Of a stretch of 64,000 nucleotides of DNA, positions 22,198-28,927 are shown piece after piece. The stretch's first letter is position 1. Every line of letters begins with the position of its first letter. The notes under the pieces were generated by a model, which was not told the DNA's origin, did not search any database, and saw nothing but the letters and a program-made list of their open reading frames with translations. Both the position numbers and the translations under genes were made by a program. The stretch spans positions 1,568,001 through 1,632,000 of the forward strand of contig CBDCTJ010000007.1 of NCBI GenBank assembly GCA_965222115.1. The letters run 5' to 3'. Origin of the DNA: Planctomycetota bacterium. Lineage in GTDB: Bacteria; Planctomycetota; PLA2; JAEUHO01.

Positions 22198-22601
22198 GCG
22201 TTTGGGTCTCCTGGCACCCCGAAGCCTCGCGGGGGCAGTTAATGGCGCAGGAAGGTTAACCGCTGGCGCAGCCCCCTCGATGGTTTTCCCTGTAACCTCC
22301 CCAAACTTGCGGCGTTCCAGGGGTAGGGCGCCGACGCGCGACCGGATCCAAGGAGCCTCGGATCCAGCGAGCATCGGAAGCTGCGATGTCCTCGTGGCGG
22401 CGCCCGCCTATCAAACCATTCAAGCCATGGTCTGTTCGGGGTCATGGTCCAATGAGGACGCGCCCTTGTGAGGCGAGACGTTTTTTGGATCCAATCGTTT
22501 TGTTCGATCAAAGCAATTGCGGGTCCATTGGCCGGAGTCGGACGTTGATTCGAATCGTGCGAGAGATCTTGAGAACCCCAGATGCTCCGCGTCTACGTTC
22601 C

Positions 22602-23828
22602 ATGGCGTCCATGGGCTGTGCTTGCGCACTGACCTTGTTCTGCATTGCGGCCTCAAGTCATCGGTCGATCAGCGCCTCAGAAGAGCAGGTTCCCGCGAAC
22701 AAGTCCTCGGCGAATGATGACGCCGACGCACTAAAGGCTGTCAAGGACGACGCCGTGGCGGCGTACCGGCTTGCCCTGCGCGCTGAGCACAACCAGAACA
22801 AGGCGCTAGCCACGAAAGCGCTTGAAGCCGTGATTAAGCTCGATCCAAATCACCGCGCGGCCCGCCGCGCCCTCGGCTACGAAAAGGTGGACACTCGTTG
22901 GCTTCGCGGCGCCGAACTCTATCGTGCGCGTGGATTCGTTCACTACAAACAGCGCTGGATGACGGCGACCGAGTTTGCCGACGCCACGCGACCGCAACGT
23001 GAAGCGGCAGAACAAAAGCGCGGTGAAGCCCGTGTGTTGATCCAGTTGGCTCGTGTCACCGATGTAAATCCCGATGTCGTCGCCTCGGCCAAGCGTGCAA
23101 TCGCCACGATGGACGATCGCTTCAAGTTGGCGCCCATGGCGCAGGCGCTTCGATGTGAACCGCCTGCCCTGCGCATCTACGCTGCTGAGACCCTGGGGCG
23201 GATGGGGAACCCGCTGGCTGTTCCCGCATTGCTCAAGCGTGCGATTCACGACGATCAAGAATCCGTGCGTGAAATTGCGGTGGATGCACTTCGCGCCATT
23301 GATTCGCCGGCCACCGTCGTGCCGCTGGGTCGAGCACTTCAGAGTCGTCATCTCGCGGTGCGTGTCAATGCGTCCAAGGCGCTCGCGCGACTCGGCGACA
23401 TTGGCGGCATGCCCTTGATCATCAAGCGGTGGGTCGGTCGCTCGGGCGATTTCCCCCGCGTCTACTTCGCGCAGATGAATCAGGTGAGTTACATCCAAGA
23501 CTTCGACGTGGAAGTTGCGCAGACGTCATTCATTGCCGATCCCATTGTGGGCGTGTTGCAAGAAGGCGTCGTTCATTCGCATAAGATTTTGGCTACCGAG
23601 TACAGCTTCACCACGGTTGAAGCGCCCGCTTACCGCGGTGCATTGGCAAAACTCGCCGGCGTTGATGAAGGCCACCAAGTCGGCGCCTGGGTGAAGTTCT
23701 GGCAGAAAGAGGGCGAGCGCCTCATGACCGAGCGCGCCGAAGCCTACGACAAACGAGCCAAAGTGCGCGAGCGTTCGAAGCGCCGACGATCCGGTGAGCG
23801 AGCACGAGGCGCACCCGCCGCGCGGTAG
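22602..23828 (+). CDS. Exported HEAT-repeat protein with conserved YIQDFDVEVA insert (paralog 1)
   Basis: Signal-like N-terminus (exact start uncertain), DPNHRAARRALGY...W motif, 3-4 HEAT repeats, conserved beta insert. Confidence 0.75.
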   Translation: MASMGCACALTLFCIAASSHRSISASEEQVPANKSSANDDADALKAVKDDAVAAYRLALRAEHNQNKALATKALEAVIKLDPNHRAARRALGYEKVDTRWLRGAELYRARGFVHYKQRWMTATEFADATRPQREAAEQKRGEARVLIQLARVTDVNPDVVASAKRAIATMDDRFKLAPMAQALRCEPPALRIYAAETLGRMGNPLAVPALLKRAIHDDQESVREIAVDALRAIDSPATVVPLGRALQSRHLAVRVNASKALARLGDIGGMPLIIKRWVGRSGDFPRVYFAQMNQVSYIQDFDVEVAQTSFIADPIVGVLQEGVVHSHKILATEYSFTTVEAPAYRGALAKLAGVDEGHQVGAWVKFWQKEGERLMTERAEAYDKRAKVRERSKRRRSGERARGAPAAR

Positions 23829-23837
23829 CGCGAAACG

Positions 23838-24842
23838 ATGAAGAATTCGAGATTCTTAGGAGCGTTCTGTATGTACCACCTGAAGCTACGCACACACGCG
23901 CGACTCATTTTCGCGTGTGTCATCTGCCTATCGGCCAGTGCATTTGCTGGTGCCGACCGGGAAGCCCCAGCAAAGGGAGTTGCTGACGCGCCGACAAACC
24001 GGCAGGGTGCATCCAGCGCGAAGGTGTCAGCCGACGAAGGCTCAACGGAGGCCGCAACCCGGGTGGCAATCAACAAGAGTCCTGCGGTGCGGCGCGCGCG
24101 CGTCTTTCTCGCGTGGATGGCGGGAAAAGACGAGCAACTCAAGGCCCAGGGCAAGGCGTCACTTGAGAAGGAGACCGAGGCGGTTCAATACGCGCTGCTT
24201 CAGGAAGCACTGCGCCACAAGTCGCCTGTTTTGCGTTCGTATGCGGCCAAGCGCCTGTCCAATGTTTCGGTTCCCAAGGGATTCAAGACGCTCCTAACCA
24301 CCGCGCTGCGTGATACAGATCCGTCGGTTCGCGTTACGGCGGCGAAGGCACTCAAGCACCCTGCCTATTCGCGCGCGGTGCATGTGTTTGGGCGGGGTCT
24401 ATTCACCGCGTCCACGGCCATTCAGCGTCGGTCATTGGCAGCGTTGACGTCGATTGGCGACGAGCTCGCCGTGGGCTACATCGTTCAGCGTTGGGAGAAG
24501 CGCAGCGGTGATTTCACCCGCGTCTATTTCATGCAGATGAACCAACTCGGCTACATCCAAGACTTCGATGTTGAGGTTGCGAGTACGTCGTTTATCGCAG
24601 ACCCTGTGGTCGGCGTCTTGCAAGAAGGCGTCTTGCAAGACGTCCGCATCCTTGCCACGTCCCAAGAAGGAACCACCGTCCGCGCCGCCACCTATCGCCG
24701 CGCGCTATCTTCAATCGCGGGCATAGACAAAGGCGCCAAGGTCAGCGCCTGGCGCAAGTACTGGGACACCAAGAAGCACGACCTCGCCACAAAGCGCGCC
24801 AACCGCCTCCGCACCGCCAATCGCCCAACCACTGAACGCTAG
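23838..24842 (+). CDS. Exported HEAT-repeat protein with conserved YIQDFDVEVA insert (paralog 2)
   Basis: Signal peptide (...SASAFA), HEAT repeats (LRDTDPSVRVTAAKAL), same insert as paralog 1. Confidence 0.75.
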   Translation: MKNSRFLGAFCMYHLKLRTHARLIFACVICLSASAFAGADREAPAKGVADAPTNRQGASSAKVSADEGSTEAATRVAINKSPAVRRARVFLAWMAGKDEQLKAQGKASLEKETEAVQYALLQEALRHKSPVLRSYAAKRLSNVSVPKGFKTLLTTALRDTDPSVRVTAAKALKHPAYSRAVHVFGRGLFTASTAIQRRSLAALTSIGDELAVGYIVQRWEKRSGDFTRVYFMQMNQLGYIQDFDVEVASTSFIADPVVGVLQEGVLQDVRILATSQEGTTVRAATYRRALSSIAGIDKGAKVSAWRKYWDTKKHDLATKRANRLRTANRPTTER

Positions 24843-24881: not shown

Positions 24882-27800
24882 TTAGCGTTGGTTTCCCGGC
24901 AGTAGCGTGCGCTCGATTCGCCATGCGCGGTCGATTGGCGCAAGCATCAGCTCGTCGAGTTGCGGGGCACGTGCCTCGTGCCACCATGACGACGTATCCT
25001 TCAGGAATTCGTCATCAACGAATTCGACACCGCTACCACTTCTGAGCGCCCATCGTCCCTTCCCTGCGACCGTCGATGTTTGACCCTCGATTAGTCGCAG
25101 GCCGAGCGTTACACCCGTTCCGTCTGTGTCGCGTGATGCAATGATCGAAACACCGGCCACAACTCGCGTCCGATTGACAGCGACGTGTTGTAGTACTGAC
25201 AATACGTCCTTACCCCGCAGCGGTTGACCAATCAATGACTCTGTGAGCTGCTTCAACTTGTCACTGGGTGAAGCACCTGGCGTTTCCCAGTGAACGTCAT
25301 GCACAATGCATGAGAGGCGTCGAATGAGCCAGTCGAGTTGCTCTGCTTCACTCGATGTGGGAGCCTTCACTTGTCTGAGGACGGGAATCACACCTAGCCC
25401 GAGACGTACGAGTACACCCTCCGCACGTGAGCGCTCTTTGTCGTCTGAGGCGCGCTGCCAATGTTGCAATGCAGCCTTTACTCGCTGGCCAGAAACGGGT
25501 TTGGGTTTCGGACGCGTAGGTACCGCTACCGCTTCCAGGTTGTTTGCCTTCCGCCATGTGTTCAGAAAGCGGTAGCGCGTAGTCAACGAAGATGCCATGT
25601 AGGCCGTTTCGTCATAGAGGTAACGATTCGGCCAAAGGAGTCCCAACCGCTTTGCGGCTAGATCGCCGACTCGCTTGGGGTCGAGGTGACGCATATTCGA
25701 CGGTCCGGTATGTGACGTGATTATGCGACGGTCCCGAAGCATTTGGACAAGTAGCGCTTCAAGCAGCATTGACGTCTGTTCTGGGACGAAGACGTCAGAA
25801 AAGAGTATGTGATTGGGCGTCGTTTCCGGCGACAAAGGCGCTTCGCTATTGTCTCGTACGGCAATCTCCCTCGCGACGTAGGCGCAAAGAGCAGGTGAGG
25901 CCTTTTCGATCGACTCCTTCATACGTCGTAGCGACCGTTGCGGATCCGCCTTGCACATAAAACGAATCAGCTCCCTGGGCTCGACGCCCTGCTTCGCCGG
26001 CCCCAAGCTCACAAAACTCACCGTCAACGTGTCACTGGCAAGCGTGTACCAGTCCGGGAGAATCGCATTCAATCCACTGACATCGTCCCGAGCAAGAAGC
26101 GTCTCCGCGGCGGCCAATCGTGGTGCGGCATCACCTTTGCGCGCAAGCGACCGTAGAAGCGCGCTCGCCTCCTTTGTCCGGATCGGTGCCAAGGCACGAG
26201 TTAGCGCACTCGCTCGAAGTGGACCCTTGCTGGCCGCGATCGCGTCTCGTATTGGATCAAGAGCCTGTTTTGGAAAACGAAGCGCGAGTCGCTCAGCCTG
26301 TTTGACAGACGCGGAGGTCCCAGCGCGAATCCCGTCAATGAGGACGGCGGCCTCACCCTTCTTCTTTGCGGACTTCCACCAGTGTTCGACGATCTCTCGC
26401 GGCGTGGGTGACGTATCGTCGACTCGTCGAATGTTGACATCGAATTCTATCCGAGGCGTCTCAACGAACTTGCGTCCCGCAATGTGTTCGAGGAGTGCGT
26501 GAGCAAGTTCATTGACTCGGACGACTCTGAATTGAAAGGGGTGCCAAGTCTTCCATCGACGATCTTGTATCGCCACCCGTGTAAATCGAGTGTCTTCCAG
26601 CGCCTCTATGAGCGCAGGCACCGCTTCATAGCCAAGGCGCTTAAGATGTGTTACGGGCGCTTGGCGCCCCTCTACGATTCGATTGTGAATCGTGAAGCGG
26701 TCTGACAAAAACAGCTTGCCAACGCACCATCGTTGCACATTGGGTAGCGCGCGAACAAGGGTCTTTGGGTCCAGGGTAGCCCCTTGGACGGCTCCTAAAT
26801 CAGGTAGCTTGTAGTGCACCTCTTCAGCCGCCATCGCGCGCAACGTCTCAACGTCCTGAGAATAGTCAACTTGCATTCGTCGCTGAAGATCCTCAAGCGC
26901 TTTCAAGGATTCCCGCCACGTCTTGTGCTCCCTCACAAGGTCGTGCTGCCAACTCGTGTGCAGGCGGTGAATGACGCCACTGCGAAGCTGCTCTACGACG
27001 CTCCACGTGCCGTATCCCGCGTGAAACCGAATGTCGATGCTTCCTACGTGCTTCCAGATTCGCAGCGCAAGCTGCTTCTGTCCTCGACCGTATAGCGCCA
27101 TGGCGATTAGAAATCCTCGCCGTCGGTTGAAATCTGCGAACGCGAAGTCCATAAAGGGGTTGTTCTTTGTCTTCTTCGCCGAATGCTCAAGGCGGGCTAG
27201 TGGTTTGGCTATCTCCCGATCGATCGCTAGCGACTCAATACGCGGGTACCTGCTCGAGCCCGGCAGCTGCTTTGGGAACTTTGCGCGCCGCATCATGACG
27301 TCGAACACCGTCGTGTGAGTAGGCGTTTCGCTAACGACAAATCCATGAACGACGTCGCCCGGTCCGTCGTCTCCCGCAACCCGTGATGCATGGGTAACTT
27401 TGACCATTGGAATCGAACTGACGTCCGGAAGTCCCGTCGTCTTCCACCAGGCGATGGCGCGTTGAAGTCCGGCTTCATCCGCGTCAACGGGAAATCGCAG
27501 TGCGTGTACTTTTCGCCGATTCTCACGCCATTCGTCGGCCTTGAGATTCGTGTACCACTCATCCCACGCTGGTCGATTCCATCCTTCGCCCGATCCCCCA
27601 AACCGTTTTCCCGACACATCTCGAAGGTAACTCCAACCCAAGTGACCAGTTACATTGAGCGAATCGATCAGTATCTTCAGGCCGCGTCGTTCGCCCTGTT
27701 CCGCCAAGGCCCAGGCCAGCGCCAAGCGAACATGGAAGTCCTTTTCGCTTGTCAATTGCTTTGTAAGCCATGGGACCAGTTGATCGGGCGCATAGTGCTC

Positions 27801-27989
27801 GCGCGCAATCGACTTCGCTGATTGCTCGCGAGTTCGTGTGTCATTCGACTCAAACTGCAAGAGCAGCGCCTGCAACTTGGCGTGTGCCGCATTCTTGGCC
27901 GCAGCCTCGTCTTCCTTTGCCCACACAGTCCCGGTTGTCGAAACTGTGAGCACCCCAAACATCACCAAGCACGCGACTACACGCTTCAT
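24882..27989 (-). CDS. Large exported HEAT-repeat-containing protein (~1035 aa)
   Basis: GGAGGT RBS, signal peptide MKRVVACLVMFGVL...VWA-KE, HEAT-like segments (VRLALAWALAEQG; LGYEAVPALIEALED). Confidence 0.75.
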   Translation of the reverse strand: MKRVVACLVMFGVLTVSTTGTVWAKEDEAAAKNAAHAKLQALLLQFESNDTRTREQSAKSIAREHYAPDQLVPWLTKQLTSEKDFHVRLALAWALAEQGERRGLKILIDSLNVTGHLGWSYLRDVSGKRFGGSGEGWNRPAWDEWYTNLKADEWRENRRKVHALRFPVDADEAGLQRAIAWWKTTGLPDVSSIPMVKVTHASRVAGDDGPGDVVHGFVVSETPTHTTVFDVMMRRAKFPKQLPGSSRYPRIESLAIDREIAKPLARLEHSAKKTKNNPFMDFAFADFNRRRGFLIAMALYGRGQKQLALRIWKHVGSIDIRFHAGYGTWSVVEQLRSGVIHRLHTSWQHDLVREHKTWRESLKALEDLQRRMQVDYSQDVETLRAMAAEEVHYKLPDLGAVQGATLDPKTLVRALPNVQRWCVGKLFLSDRFTIHNRIVEGRQAPVTHLKRLGYEAVPALIEALEDTRFTRVAIQDRRWKTWHPFQFRVVRVNELAHALLEHIAGRKFVETPRIEFDVNIRRVDDTSPTPREIVEHWWKSAKKKGEAAVLIDGIRAGTSASVKQAERLALRFPKQALDPIRDAIAASKGPLRASALTRALAPIRTKEASALLRSLARKGDAAPRLAAAETLLARDDVSGLNAILPDWYTLASDTLTVSFVSLGPAKQGVEPRELIRFMCKADPQRSLRRMKESIEKASPALCAYVAREIAVRDNSEAPLSPETTPNHILFSDVFVPEQTSMLLEALLVQMLRDRRIITSHTGPSNMRHLDPKRVGDLAAKRLGLLWPNRYLYDETAYMASSLTTRYRFLNTWRKANNLEAVAVPTRPKPKPVSGQRVKAALQHWQRASDDKERSRAEGVLVRLGLGVIPVLRQVKAPTSSEAEQLDWLIRRLSCIVHDVHWETPGASPSDKLKQLTESLIGQPLRGKDVLSVLQHVAVNRTRVVAGVSIIASRDTDGTGVTLGLRLIEGQTSTVAGKGRWALRSGSGVEFVDDEFLKDTSSWWHEARAPQLDELMLAPIDRAWRIERTLLPGNQR

Positions 27990-28219
27990 CGTCAAGACCT
28001 CCATGCGCCCAATAAACCAGGCTTTCTTGACGCAATTGTCACCGTGCGCCACAAAAGCCTGGCATTTGTGGCGCGTACCCCGTGGAGAGGGGGAAGTTGC
28101 GGAGAAGTGGGATAGGTGTTTGACGGATTGGGCGGGCAACTCTTAGGGACTGGTTGGGTTTCAAAACGCAACATCGAACGGCGAACCGGCCGCGACGATC
28201 CCGCGAAAGGAACAGTCCC

Positions 28220-28927
28220 ATGAAAAATCAACGAGAACCTCGAACAACTCGCACGCTACGCATTGGCGTTGCAGCAGGAGCAGCACTCGCTCTTGCGCTC
28301 CTAACGGTAGCTCCCACGTCTGCTTCGGCGGAAGAGGGTGCGCGCAAGGGCAAGCGCGGACGCGCTGGCAAGTGCCACAAGCGTCCCTTCAAGAAACTTG
28401 ATACGAATGGTGATGGCGTTCTCACGAAAGATGAGGTGCCCGAGCGTGCTTGGAAGCGTCTCGCCAAAGCCGACAAAGACGGCGACGGAAGTGTGAGTCG
28501 CGAGGAAGCGCGCGCGGCCGGCAAGAAGCGCCGTGCCAAACGTGGTAAGCGTGGCAAGCGACGTGCGCGTCGAGGGCACATGCGCCGTCGGCTCAAGCAA
28601 GCCGACACGAATGGCGATGGCGCGATTGGCAAGGACGAAGTATCGGCCGAGGCATGGACACGATTGGCCGCACTGGACACGGACGGCGACCTTGTTGTTA
28701 CCCGTGCAGAAGTTCGCGCCAAGGCGAAGGAACGCGCAGAAGCACGTTTCGCCAAGAAGGATGCGAATGGCGACGGTGCACTGAGCGAAGATGAAGTCGG
28801 CGAGCGGTTGTGGAAGCGCATCGCTCGTGCCGACAGCAATGCCGATGGCGTCGTCACGCTTGACGAGCTCCGTGAGGCCCGCAAGGCCCGTCGTGCGAAG
28901 CGCAAGGCGTCACGCGACGCCAAGTAA
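28220..28927 (+). CDS. Exported EF-hand calcium-binding protein (6 EF-hand loops)
   Basis: DTNGDGVLTKDE, DKDGDGSVSREE, DTNGDGAIGKDE, DTDGDLVVTRAE, DANGDGALSEDE, DSNADGVVTLDE; signal peptide. Confidence 0.9.
   Translation: MKNQREPRTTRTLRIGVAAGAALALALLTVAPTSASAEEGARKGKRGRAGKCHKRPFKKLDTNGDGVLTKDEVPERAWKRLAKADKDGDGSVSREEARAAGKKRRAKRGKRGKRRARRGHMRRRLKQADTNGDGAIGKDEVSAEAWTRLAALDTDGDLVVTRAEVRAKAKERAEARFAKKDANGDGALSEDEVGERLWKRIARADSNADGVVTLDELREARKARRAKRKASRDAK

Follow-up and report, generated by a model that had tools for sequence, protein, structure and literature searches.

HEAT-repeat proteins of Planctomycetota carry a copy of the secretin Gate 1 loop that co-varies with the gate of a single secretin of the same genome

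Two adjacent genes within a 64,000-nt window of a Planctomycetota genome (the whole stretch of DNA that was analysed) encode HEAT-repeat proteins, here called HEAT_A and HEAT_B, which carry a copy of Gate 1 of secretins. What is new here is that this gate copy co-varies with the gate of a single secretin of the same genome, suggesting a type of secretin partner that has not been described before. Judging from sequence comparisons, we put the probability at roughly 0.5 that the HEAT proteins are periplasmic partners that use gate mimicry to engage their cognate secretin and serve as its assembly cap, plug or gate regulator.

HEAT_A (P0001, 408 aa; 22602..23828) and HEAT_B (P0002, 334 aa; 23838..24842) are open reading frames on the forward strand, with 9 nt between them; the start of HEAT_A is uncertain because its frame is open back to position 22386. 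HEAT_A consists, in order, of a signal peptide predicted from the hydrophobic N-terminus (22602..22679), a TPR-like N-terminal part, HEAT repeats of the PBS/alphaRep-like kind (residues 145–266; 23034..23399), the Gate 1 copy and C-terminal helices. HEAT_B is a short paralog that lacks the TPR-like N-terminal part. Both are HEAT repeat proteins by the Pfam profiles HEAT_2, HEAT and HEAT_PBS (PF13646, PF02985 and PF03130), with HEAT_2 scores of 57.6 bits for P0001 and 48.0 bits for P0002 against a cut-off of 27.7, and a PDB profile search returned alphaRep proteins as matches to the repeats. HEAT-type repeats were the only Pfam matches of either protein; at E ≤ 1 nothing matched the block described below, nor was there a whole-domain match to PF00263. 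PADLOC matched its generic HEAT-ARM model alone, PHROGs gave no match, and a promoter and terminator scan near the two genes found no signal above shuffled sequences.

HEAT_A and HEAT_B align without gaps over 237 aa (BLASTP, E 2e-58), with 102 identical residues (43%). As can be seen from this alignment, identity is concentrated in 44-aa blocks at exactly 23439–23570 (HEAT_A) and 24501–24632 (HEAT_B), where 38 of 44 residues agree, compared with 64 of 193 outside. The first-pass annotation had described divergent paralogs with a near-identical block containing many synonymous differences, and both observations were borne out: the block DNA is identical at 102 of 132 nt, and different codons are used for 16 of the 38 identical residues. 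The block is not confined to HEAT_A and HEAT_B. No other part of the HEAT family is as strongly conserved: nine of the ten invariant columns of a 73-row alignment lie in the block, where the commonest residue of a column has an average frequency of 0.85, compared with 0.65 in the HEAT part and 0.58 in the C-terminal part. This indicates strong selection on the block itself.

The block is homologous to Gate 1 of secretins (PF00263; GspD, PilQ, InvG and phage pIV), together with the adjoining inner-barrel strands. Comparison by hhalign with a TPR-lipoprotein secretin of the same genome, SEC_1, gave a probability of 99.6% and an E-value of 2.4e-24 over 50 columns, which correspond to residues 225–274 of HEAT_B (24510..24659) and 802–851 of SEC_1; carried over by the ungapped BLASTP register, the same segment is residues 283–332 of HEAT_A (23448..23597). 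The first-pass annotation had proposed that planctomycete secretins carry this segment at the position of the central gate. This proved to be so: two Secretin-domain proteins of the window's genome, 972 and 1088 aa in length (PF00263, 90–96 bits), bear the block, as does a 406-aa mini-secretin, and alignment of SEC_1 to phage pIV (7OFH) and to GspD (phmmer) places the segment on Gate 1. With the hinge residues given in the pIV structure report (PMC8563730), the block covers Gate 1 in full, between the hinges Gly267 and Gly297, together with two flanking inner-barrel strands. In the same account the Gate 1 tip lies at the pore centre, and hydrogen bonds join Gate 1 and Gate 2 of neighbouring subunits. 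The hinge-to-hinge length is 30 residues in the HEAT block and 31 in pIV, and the glycine of the second hinge is invariant in the HEAT family. In HEAT_A the hinge-to-hinge copy comprises residues N293–G322 (23478..23567).

The AlphaFold2 model of HEAT_B agrees with the earlier expectation that the block would project as a hairpin between the last HEAT repeat and a helical cap. Its HEAT solenoid (residues 65–222; 24030..24503) is helical, with pLDDT mostly above 90, and the sole strands of the model, 229–241 and 257–269, form one predicted beta-hairpin with a 15-residue tip at 242–256 (24522..24644). Confidence in the hairpin region is moderate, with pLDDT means of 71, 82, 63, 70 and 74 for successive 10-residue blocks over residues 221–270. 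Behind it come two C-terminal helices, 281–294 and 302–327 (24678..24818), a cap that is not secretin-like. The model is thus all-helical plus one hairpin, and an N0-like alpha/beta fold is not seen in it. A Foldseek search of the PDB with this model gave four matches at E ≤ 0.001, all of them alphaRep or HEAT chains; neither Foldseek nor the PDB profile search found a PDB analogue of the whole HEAT-plus-hairpin architecture.

Homology to secretins stops after the 50 columns, and the HEAT_B model has two strands; the outer barrel, Gate 2 and the fourth inner strand are absent from the HEAT proteins. The suggestion that these proteins build a beta-barrel of their own therefore found no support, as so small a part of them is secretin-like. 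More broadly, in line with the second idea of the first-pass annotation, the HEAT hairpins might oligomerise, independently of any secretin, into a gate-like ring or small barrel with a HEAT collar. Gate 1 and the inner-barrel strands of secretins do make lateral contacts between identical subunits, according to the pIV report (PMC8563730), and the tandem arrangement of a long and a short HEAT gene, which recurs in 7 of 77 loci, could allow hetero-oligomers. We nevertheless regard such a ring as highly improbable: besides the missing barrel and Gate 2, resemblance to secretins is lowest in the flanking strands of the block, and a self-assembling ring leaves unexplained why the hairpin tracks one secretin of the same genome.

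That tracking is the central observation. The window's genome has seven Secretin-domain loci, among which this gate type was found only in SEC_1, SEC_2 and the mini-secretin. It also has a further HEAT paralog, HEAT_C, unlinked to the tandem pair. From the sequences, each HEAT gate has a single secretin as its counterpart: SEC_1 for HEAT_A and HEAT_B, and SEC_2 for HEAT_C. Over the 30 hinge-to-hinge residues, the cognate identities within this genome are 26 (HEAT_A with SEC_1), 23 (HEAT_B with SEC_1) and 26 (HEAT_C with SEC_2), compared with cross identities of 18 (HEAT_A with HEAT_C), 16 (HEAT_B with HEAT_C), 17 (HEAT_A with SEC_2) and 19 (HEAT_C with SEC_1). The same pattern is found in relatives. 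Among 21 related genomes, 20 of which contain both the HEAT family and such secretins, as the co-occurrence anticipated in the first-pass annotation would have it, 19 of 20 HEAT_C blocks resemble a SEC_2 block more than they do any of the blocks carried by the other HEAT scaffold. In one family of genomes (f2), all seven HEAT_A blocks are nearer to SEC_1 (29–36 of 44 residues) than to blocks on the other HEAT scaffold (24–28).

In 43 genomes from 19 families, the match keeps up with substitutions that are specific to a lineage. HEAT_C and SEC_2 blocks share on average 31.4 of 44 residues within a genome and 25.4 between genomes, a difference reached in 0 of 10000 permutations overall, in 1 of 10000 within family f1 and in 60 of 10000 within family f2; since related genomes are not independent, these counts overstate the case. 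Non-cognate HEAT–secretin control pairs showed no same-genome excess, and neither did HEAT_A and SEC_1 within family f1 (7098 of 10000 permutations). When each of the 19 families was represented by one genome, own-genome identity was 26.25 compared with 22.29 for other genomes (0 of 20000 permutations), and the own secretin exceeded the mean of the other genomes' secretins in 19 of 19 families; the own genome was strictly the best match in just 7 of the 19, with one tie, several genomes being represented by a single secretin block. Signatures common to the HEAT protein and the secretin of one genome include VDVANSAFIANPN, DFDPEIAQ and ADPEIG, and in Rohdeia mirabilis an AQ-to-AT change is present in both. 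The match is strongest within Gate 1: identity to the own secretin averages 0.73 at block positions 7–38, compared with 0.26 and 0.42 in the two flanks. At the variable tip positions 22–24, where no residue has a frequency above 0.59, it is 0.74, 0.94 and 0.75.

Scaffold and gate type are uncoupled in the HEAT family, as far as sequence comparison can tell. Three genomes (G002, G006 and G010) have a HEAT_C-type scaffold with a SEC_1-type gate; with the block masked, these scaffolds score 251–278 bits to HEAT_C and 107–124 bits to HEAT_A. AU tests on 44 columns allow one common origin for every block on a HEAT_C-type scaffold, these three among them (p 0.082), and likewise for the HEAT_C blocks (p 0.215) and for all HEAT blocks (p 0.118), none of which was rejected.

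These results bear on the possibility that the match arises by concerted evolution, in which a secretin gene occasionally overwrites the HEAT gene over the shared 130–150 nt. Functional coupling would then be lacking, and the HEAT hairpin would have a separate role and tolerate any secretin-type gate. Apart from the AU tests, this is consistent with identical runs of 29–47 nt in some cognate pairs and with a database protein, P0223, in which a SEC_1-type N-terminus and a HEAT_A-type C-terminus are joined inside the block. Together the runs and P0223 make recombination between HEAT and secretin genes possible, and old gene conversion events are likewise possible. P0223, the sole database relative longer than usual, may however be an assembly chimera. 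The codons argue against overwriting as the general cause. At sites with the same residue, codons are identical at 911 of 1253 sites in cognate pairs and at 585 of 817 in non-cognate pairs, and same-genome values equal other-genome values; with no excess in cognate pairs, recent gene conversion is not the explanation. Shared derived residues are encoded by different codons or lie next to synonymous differences: in G003 a shared derived Leu is CTC in one gene and CTG in the other, with an adjacent Ser as AGC and TCG, and in G017 a shared Ser is bordered by synonymous differences. In the window's genome the longest runs shared by HEAT and secretin genes are 8–11 nt, and the block is under the strong selection of its own described above. 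We consider concerted evolution improbable.

On the preferred reading, gate mimicry, HEAT_A, HEAT_B and HEAT_C would be exported periplasmic HEAT-repeat proteins with a grafted Gate 1 hairpin and stubs of two inner-barrel strands, and selection on the protein would keep each graft matched to Gate 1 of one secretin of the same genome. The hairpin would act as a subunit mimic, replacing the Gate 1 contacts of a neighbouring subunit, both at other Gate 1 tips and at the neighbour's Gate 2, so that a HEAT protein would dock exclusively on the secretin whose gate it matches. Docking on unassembled or partly assembled secretin subunits would make it an assembly cap or chaperone; alternatively, docking beneath the closed gate of a finished channel would make it a plug, a lock or an opener. 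Physical binding of HEAT protein to secretin, its place and its effect on the channel are what we infer from the match. It counts against this reading that the HEAT genes are not found beside the secretin genes: none of 84 blocks in 77 loci has a secretin-type block within 6 kb. The AU tests, the lack of a same-genome excess for HEAT_A and SEC_1 within family f1 and the moderate confidence in the hairpin weigh against it as well.

The gate-to-gate tracking would be accounted for equally well if a common third partner recognised the hairpin of the HEAT protein as well as Gate 1 of the secretin, without direct contact between the two, both keeping the same epitope. Such a partner might be a substrate or a fibre tip, a factor for assembly or quality control in the periplasm, or the force transducer of the ExbB/ExbD cluster described below, and the HEAT protein would then serve in the periplasm as a receptor, decoy or hand-over station. 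Its HEAT and TPR parts, being general-purpose scaffolds for protein binding, suit such a role, as does the secretin locus. SEC_1 and SEC_2, lipoproteins with a fused TPR part, lie elsewhere on the chromosome from HEAT_A and HEAT_B and flank a cluster of ExbB, two ExbD, TPR proteins and a sulfatase-like protein; the cluster is kept in 11 of 11 relatives, which implies that further partners exist. Against this, no candidate factor co-varies with the HEAT genes or is linked to them. No conserved neighbour of the HEAT genes was found, the best non-self cluster being an ABC ATPase in 13 of 78 loci. In solved secretins, moreover, Gate 1 tips contact mainly other gate loops, as stated in PMC8563730, making a self-type contact the simpler reading. 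A third partner is, in our estimate, rather unlikely.

A bolder form of the idea, tentative and rather unlikely, sees in the HEAT proteins the trans-encoded gate modules of an envelope machine not described so far, the hairpin joining the ring of Gate 1 tips like with like and its tip carrying selenocysteine in some lineages. Two TPR-lipoprotein secretins would flank a proton-driven ExbB/ExbD motor with TPR proteins, and a dedicated soluble protein, not a pilus or pseudopilus, would set the opening or sealing of the channel. Neither secretin matched the NCBIfam equivalogs GspD, PilQ, MshL or SctC above cut-off; the best scores were 99.9 bits for SEC_1 (MshL, cut-off 250) and 97.6 bits for SEC_2 (Amuc_1098 family, cut-off 750). 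The tip residue of HEAT_B is Ser249 (AGT, 24582..24584), where HEAT_A and almost every secretin have Gln. Some relatives have a paralog with an in-frame TGA at the same codon (eight distinct blocks). The frame past it stays open for 41 to 323 codons in six complete loci, five of which end in the W-containing motif of the family, and SelB and tRNA-Sec score above cut-off in 5 of 5 genomes. Selenocysteine at this position of the relatives' paralog, as distinct from the genes in the window, is possible. A candidate 6-pair hairpin lies 15–33 nt past the UGA, and at least five pairs are formed in 7 of 8 U-type compared with 16 of 59 Gln-type HEAT blocks, the candidate having been derived from the same set and overlapping conserved codons. 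No Rfam SECIS model matched, and Cys occupies the tip position in 0 of 146 HEAT-type blocks. Were the tip residue selenocysteine, the gate could be sensitive to redox state or metals.

The HEAT proteins can be set beside known secretin partners. Those covered in a recent survey (PulS/AspS, MxiM/InvH, PilF/TadD/Tgl and TsaP) are small, exported and specific to one secretin each, some are TPR proteins, and they bind the channel periphery, at the S domain or outer surface; most pilotins are lipoproteins, and for none of these partners does the survey describe a gate copy (PMC12531336). The HEAT proteins resemble them in their proposed role in assembly or stabilisation. Unlike most pilotins, they have ordinary signal peptides, and the lipoprotein is the cognate secretin itself, with its fused TPR part. 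BfpG/TcpQ of type IVb pili is an N0-like accessory protein that joins the complex by beta-strand pairing, BfpG sitting outside the N3 ring at 17:17, in the account of the same survey (PMC12531336). It too is an accessory protein resembling a piece of a secretin; its copy is of the periplasmic N0 domain, whereas the HEAT proteins copy the central gate loop and maintain identity to the cognate channel. The HEAT proteins differ from secretins themselves in that an outer barrel, Gate 2, N domains and a lipid anchor are all missing, and the gate is borne by a soluble helical repeat protein. A matching beta-strand sequence is also kept between two proteins in PapD-type donor-strand complementation and in the short beta motifs of NLRs and effectors in amyloid signalling; the folds are unrelated, and the analogy extends only to selection of identity over complementarity.

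How the central gate of a secretin is held shut, opened and assembled is only partly understood. If gate mimicry is correct, secretins could be addressed in a new way, by a soluble protein that bears the gate loop and keeps it the same as in one channel, and the swappable tip residues would supply a natural specificity code. The analysis further draws attention to two lipoprotein secretins, uncharacterised and phylum-wide in Planctomycetota, that are coupled to an ExbB/ExbD motor. The envelope of this group is unusual, and no machinery is known for its uptake of large molecules. No description of the HEAT family was found in the literature on secretins, Planctomycetes, HEAT repeats, ExbD/TPR and selenoproteins, mostly in abstracts. 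The family is present in a cultured strain, Rohdeia mirabilis Pla163, with one HEAT protein and two such secretins, so the gate-mimicry idea is testable.

With regard to export, a crude pattern search found a hydrophobic run of at least nine residues within the first 45 in 70 of 73 family rows, most runs ending in A-x-A-G. A lipobox-like pattern, equally crude, occurred at varying positions in only 6 of 73 rows, so that there is no conserved lipobox. Fused long forms suggested by open frames of 1065–1540 aa in five genomes were rejected; three of the five were inspected, and in G053, whose translation was read, the extension is GC-rich DNA without stop codons that lies upstream of a normal gene of ~430 aa. 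Adjoining HEAT_B on the minus strand (24882–28139) is a 1085-aa HEAT protein, which has a relative in one of five related genomes, on another contig.

The tandem HEAT-repeat paralogs HEAT_A (22602-23828, 408 aa, in a frame open from 22386) and HEAT_B (23838-24842, 334 aa) are encoded on the forward strand, 9 nt apart. The two proteins are 43% identical across 237 residues. As the first-pass annotation had described, they diverge everywhere except in one block, located at 23439-23570 in HEAT_A and 24501-24632 in HEAT_B, where 38 of 44 residues match compared with 64 of 193 over the remaining alignment; codons differ at 16 of the 38 identical residues. Pfam and NCBIfam models detected only HEAT-type repeats and, in HEAT_A, a weak TPR; none matched the block of either protein.

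The same annotation had placed a similar segment in planctomycete secretins, and this link proved to be real. A genome search with the last 119 residues of HEAT_A matched seven places. Three are HEAT paralogs: HEAT_A, HEAT_B and a further one of 469 aa, HEAT_C. Two are the secretins SEC_1 (972 aa) and SEC_2 (1088 aa), in which TPR repeats at the N-terminus precede a Secretin domain (∼95 bits) at the C-terminus; the others are a mini-secretin and a 595-aa protein with a weak, double match. A profile of the HEAT family aligned to one built from 45 SEC_1 relatives with a probability of 99.6% (E 2.4e-24) over 50 columns only (HEAT_B 225-274 against SEC_1 802-851). Among solved secretins, phmmer matched SEC_1 best to phage pIV (7OFH) and GspD, and in this alignment the block falls on pIV residues ∼Gly267 to Gly297. 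Since these glycines are given as the Gate 1 hinges in an account of pIV (PMC8563730), we conclude from homology that the HEAT proteins hold all of Gate 1 from one hinge to the other (30 residues versus 31 in pIV), with stubs of both neighbouring inner-barrel strands but no other secretin part. In an AlphaFold2 model of HEAT_B built on a 73-row alignment (mean pLDDT 79.5, pTM 0.69), residues 65-222 form a helical solenoid with pLDDT above 90. A single long hairpin follows, with strands at 229-241 and 257-269, a 15-residue tip and pLDDT block means of 63-82, in agreement with the β-hairpin first proposed for the block; two helices make up the C-terminus. Foldseek searches with this model returned alphaRep/HEAT proteins only.

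At the sequence level, the block is a hallmark of the whole family and no peculiarity of the HEAT_A/HEAT_B pair. Nine of the ten invariant columns of the 73-row alignment fall within it, and it is the best conserved part of the family (0.85 versus 0.58-0.65 elsewhere). The 101 proteins listed in a word-based search with HEAT_B are nearly all from Planctomycetota, without a name or called just 'HEAT repeat' or 'hypothetical'; two are Secretin-domain proteins matched through the block alone. Of 201 Planctomycetota genomes sampled, 76 had a match, taxonomic families being nearly all-or-none. Relatives are encoded on 400 stretches of species-level genomes, and the 78 loci kept from the best 80 of these all come from Planctomycetota or unnamed bacteria. 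Because 70 of 73 rows have a hydrophobic signal-like N-terminal run, mostly ending A-x-A-G, and just six have a lipobox-like pattern, at no fixed position (both by crude patterns), the HEAT proteins are most likely exported, soluble and periplasmic. The tandem long and short arrangement was seen again in 7 of 77 loci. Across these loci, no secretin-type block lay within 6 kb of the HEAT genes (0/84 blocks) and no conserved neighbour of any other kind was found. Downstream in the window, a 1085-aa protein (24882-28139, reverse strand) has one HEAT_2 match near its N-terminus and belongs to no other family; it was rejected as a module part, a relative being present in one of five related genomes, on an unrelated contig. 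It is followed by a gene (28154-28927, forward strand) for an exported Lys/Arg-rich protein with several calcium-binding EF-hand motifs (Pfam EF-hand_5, _1, _6, _7).

Judged by residue identity, the gate of each HEAT protein tracks one particular secretin. Over the 30 hinge-to-hinge residues, HEAT_A and HEAT_B share 26 and 23 with SEC_1, and HEAT_C shares 26 with SEC_2; the cross pairs HEAT_A-HEAT_C, HEAT_A-SEC_2 and HEAT_C-SEC_1 share 18, 17 and 19. This comparison was extended to 85 distinct blocks from the same genome and 20 relatives in two families (f1 and f2), sorted by their flanks with the block not used. HEAT-type and full secretin-type blocks occur together in 20 of the 21 genomes, the exception being 57% complete, which bears out the expected phyletic co-occurrence. 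Nineteen of 20 HEAT_C blocks are nearer a SEC_2 block than any block on the other HEAT scaffold, and all seven f2 HEAT_A blocks are likewise nearer SEC_1. The SEC_2 gate differs at many positions between f1 and f2, with matching differences in the HEAT_C gate, and in a block tree f2 HEAT_C groups with f2 SEC_2 (SH-aLRT 99), separate from f1 HEAT_C. At the tip, an Ala-to-Leu change in genome G003 and an Ala-to-Ser change in G017 occur in both the HEAT protein and the secretin, and in those genomes only; QTSF/QTAF variants agree between SEC_1 and HEAT_A in 7/7 f2 genomes having both. Same-genome HEAT_C-SEC_2 identity averaged 31.4 versus 25.4 for other genomes, a value reached by 0/10000 permutations (1/10000 within f1, 60/10000 within f2), although permutation counts overstate, here and below, as related genomes are not independent. 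Non-cognate control pairs had no same-genome excess, nor did HEAT_A-SEC_1 within f1 (7098/10000).

Adding 24 genomes gave 145 blocks and 43 genomes with both kinds, from 19 families. When each family was represented by a single genome, identity averaged 26.25 within genomes versus 22.29 between them (reached by 0/20000 permutations); the own genome exceeded the mean of the others in 19/19 families and was strictly best in just seven, with one tie, several genomes being represented by only one of their secretins. Lineage-specific signatures common to both proteins are plain in the block listing and also in Rohdeia mirabilis Pla163, whose HEAT protein and both secretins read AT at the tip instead of the usual AQ. 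By position, the match centres on Gate 1, with identity to the own secretin averaging 0.73 across positions 7-38 versus 0.26 and 0.42 in the flanks. Even at the variable tip positions 22-24, where no residue exceeds a frequency of 0.59 in either class, it is 0.74, 0.94 and 0.75.

Such matching could also stem from recombination between the genes without functional coupling. Some pairs contain identical runs of 29-47 nt, and P0223 (856 aa, from a 6595-bp public metagenome contig) reads as a SEC_1-type TPR-secretin to mid-Gate 1 and then as a HEAT_A-type C-terminus, the switch at the shared block reflecting natural recombination or an assembly artefact. In AU tests on the 44 columns, one origin was not rejected for all HEAT blocks (p 0.118), for HEAT_C blocks (0.215) or for all HEAT_C-scaffold blocks including those of genomes G002, G006 and G010 (0.082). 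At same-residue sites, however, identical codons are as frequent in cognate (911/1253) as in non-cognate pairs (585/817), and same-genome pairs equal both other-genome pairs and the plateau that orthologues reach (0.65-0.78). The printed alignment for G043 has seven synonymous differences within a stretch of 31 identical residues; over the whole block 26/34 same-residue codons are identical, with 19/25 and 21/26 in non-cognate pairs there. In G003, the shared derived Leu and the Ser that follows it are encoded by CTC and AGC in one gene but by CTG and TCG in its counterpart; around the shared derived Ser of G017, synonymous differences lie two codons upstream and in both of the next two codons. 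In G002, G006 and G010 (loci L024, L025 and L026), a second HEAT_C-type scaffold bears a SEC_1-type gate; with the block masked, the three proteins score 251-278 bits to HEAT_C versus 107-124 to HEAT_A, and no HEAT_A-type scaffold was found there with the query used. Given the absence of a codon-identity excess, the synonymous differences and these HEAT_C scaffolds with SEC_1-like gates, we favour selection on the protein over gene conversion, and consider uncoupled recombination quite unlikely.

The simplest reading of a soluble protein keeping its gate identical to that of one channel is that the HEAT loop makes the contacts of a neighbouring secretin subunit's Gate 1, to which we assign a probability of about 0.5. 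The HEAT hairpin would take these contacts on its cognate secretin, where it might cap or chaperone assembly intermediates or else act on the closed gate by plugging, locking or opening it. A third partner common to both proteins could likewise hold their loops alike, down to the lineage-specific signatures; we think this unlikely, since the tracking extends to the tip, whose positions point only at other gate loops in the solved secretin structures, favouring like-with-like contact. A ring made by the HEAT proteins themselves, envisaged when the hairpin was first noted, would use the same hairpin; with each gate following a particular secretin, we regard it as very improbable. Neighbour-type contact would differ from the secretin partners surveyed in PMC12531336, which bind the channel periphery and none of which is described there with a gate copy. 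The literature searched contained no description of this HEAT-gate family.

In relatives, one paralog carries an in-frame TGA exactly at the Gate 1 tip codon (window 24582-24584), a Gln codon in most of the family and AGT (Ser) in HEAT_B. This paralog lies just 3' of a HEAT_A-like gene in G081 and G103, the place of HEAT_B in the window. The TGA occurs in 8/146 distinct HEAT-type and 0/65 secretin-type blocks (L013 position 2619 in G001, L224 in G081, L225/L116 in G103, L226 in G013, L229 and L230 in G018, L081 and L100), and none of these 146 and 65 blocks has Cys at the tip. Each of the six complete loci has an open frame of 41 to 323 codons past the TGA, which in five of them runs on to the family's C-terminal Trp-containing motif, and SelB and tRNA-Sec scored above cut-off in 5/5 genomes tested. 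A candidate hairpin 15-33 nt past the TGA, defined on those same copies and overlapping conserved codons, forms at least five of six pairs in 7/8 TGA copies versus 16/59 Gln-type HEAT blocks. Selenocysteine at the gate tip, and with it a new selenoprotein subfamily, is possible; we treat it as a lead because of how the hairpin was defined, the lack of Cys forms and the dN/dS after the TGA (0.5-0.9 in six of seven pairs and >1 in the seventh, over 30-44 codons).

The cognate secretins are encoded outside the window, unlinked to the HEAT genes, in a reverse-strand cluster at ∼2,210,200-2,227,440 of contig C7 (L008:14206-L009:11440). Its order is SEC_2, two TPR proteins (1239 and 490 aa), ExbB, two ExbD, a sulfatase-like protein and SEC_1; the ExbB, ExbD and sulfatase-like genes lie between both secretins in 11/11 relatives examined. 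By gene content, the cluster putatively couples two secretins to a proton-driven motor; TPR-tolQ-tolR-tolR modules without known function have been noted in this bacterial group in PMC12204202. SEC_1 and SEC_2 score far under the cut-offs of GspD, PilQ, MshL and SctC models. The SEC_1 relatives are probably lipoproteins, as an invariant Cys ends the signal sequence in 45/45 rows, with a lipobox-like pattern in 29/45.

Of the seven Secretin-domain loci of the genome, only three have this gate type: the mini-secretin, SEC_1 and SEC_2. A gene for a T2SSE-family ATPase is found within 6 kb of two of the remaining four loci. The mini-secretin (L005:1099-2319, contig C1, reverse strand; 406 aa) matches Pfam Secretin positions 4-92 only and has its own Gate 1 variant. 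Similar genes are found in G004 (L077), G003 (C1:108307) and G001 (C4:35303), and 10-13 kb separate such a gene from that of HEAT_A in three relatives. The 595-aa protein (L007:937-2724, forward strand, contig C3 at ∼448 kb) is exported and without a match in Pfam, contains two degenerate Gate-1-like segments and is directly preceded by a HEAT-repeat ORF (L007:2-904, forward strand); another secretin and a T2SSE ATPase are encoded ∼14 kb away.
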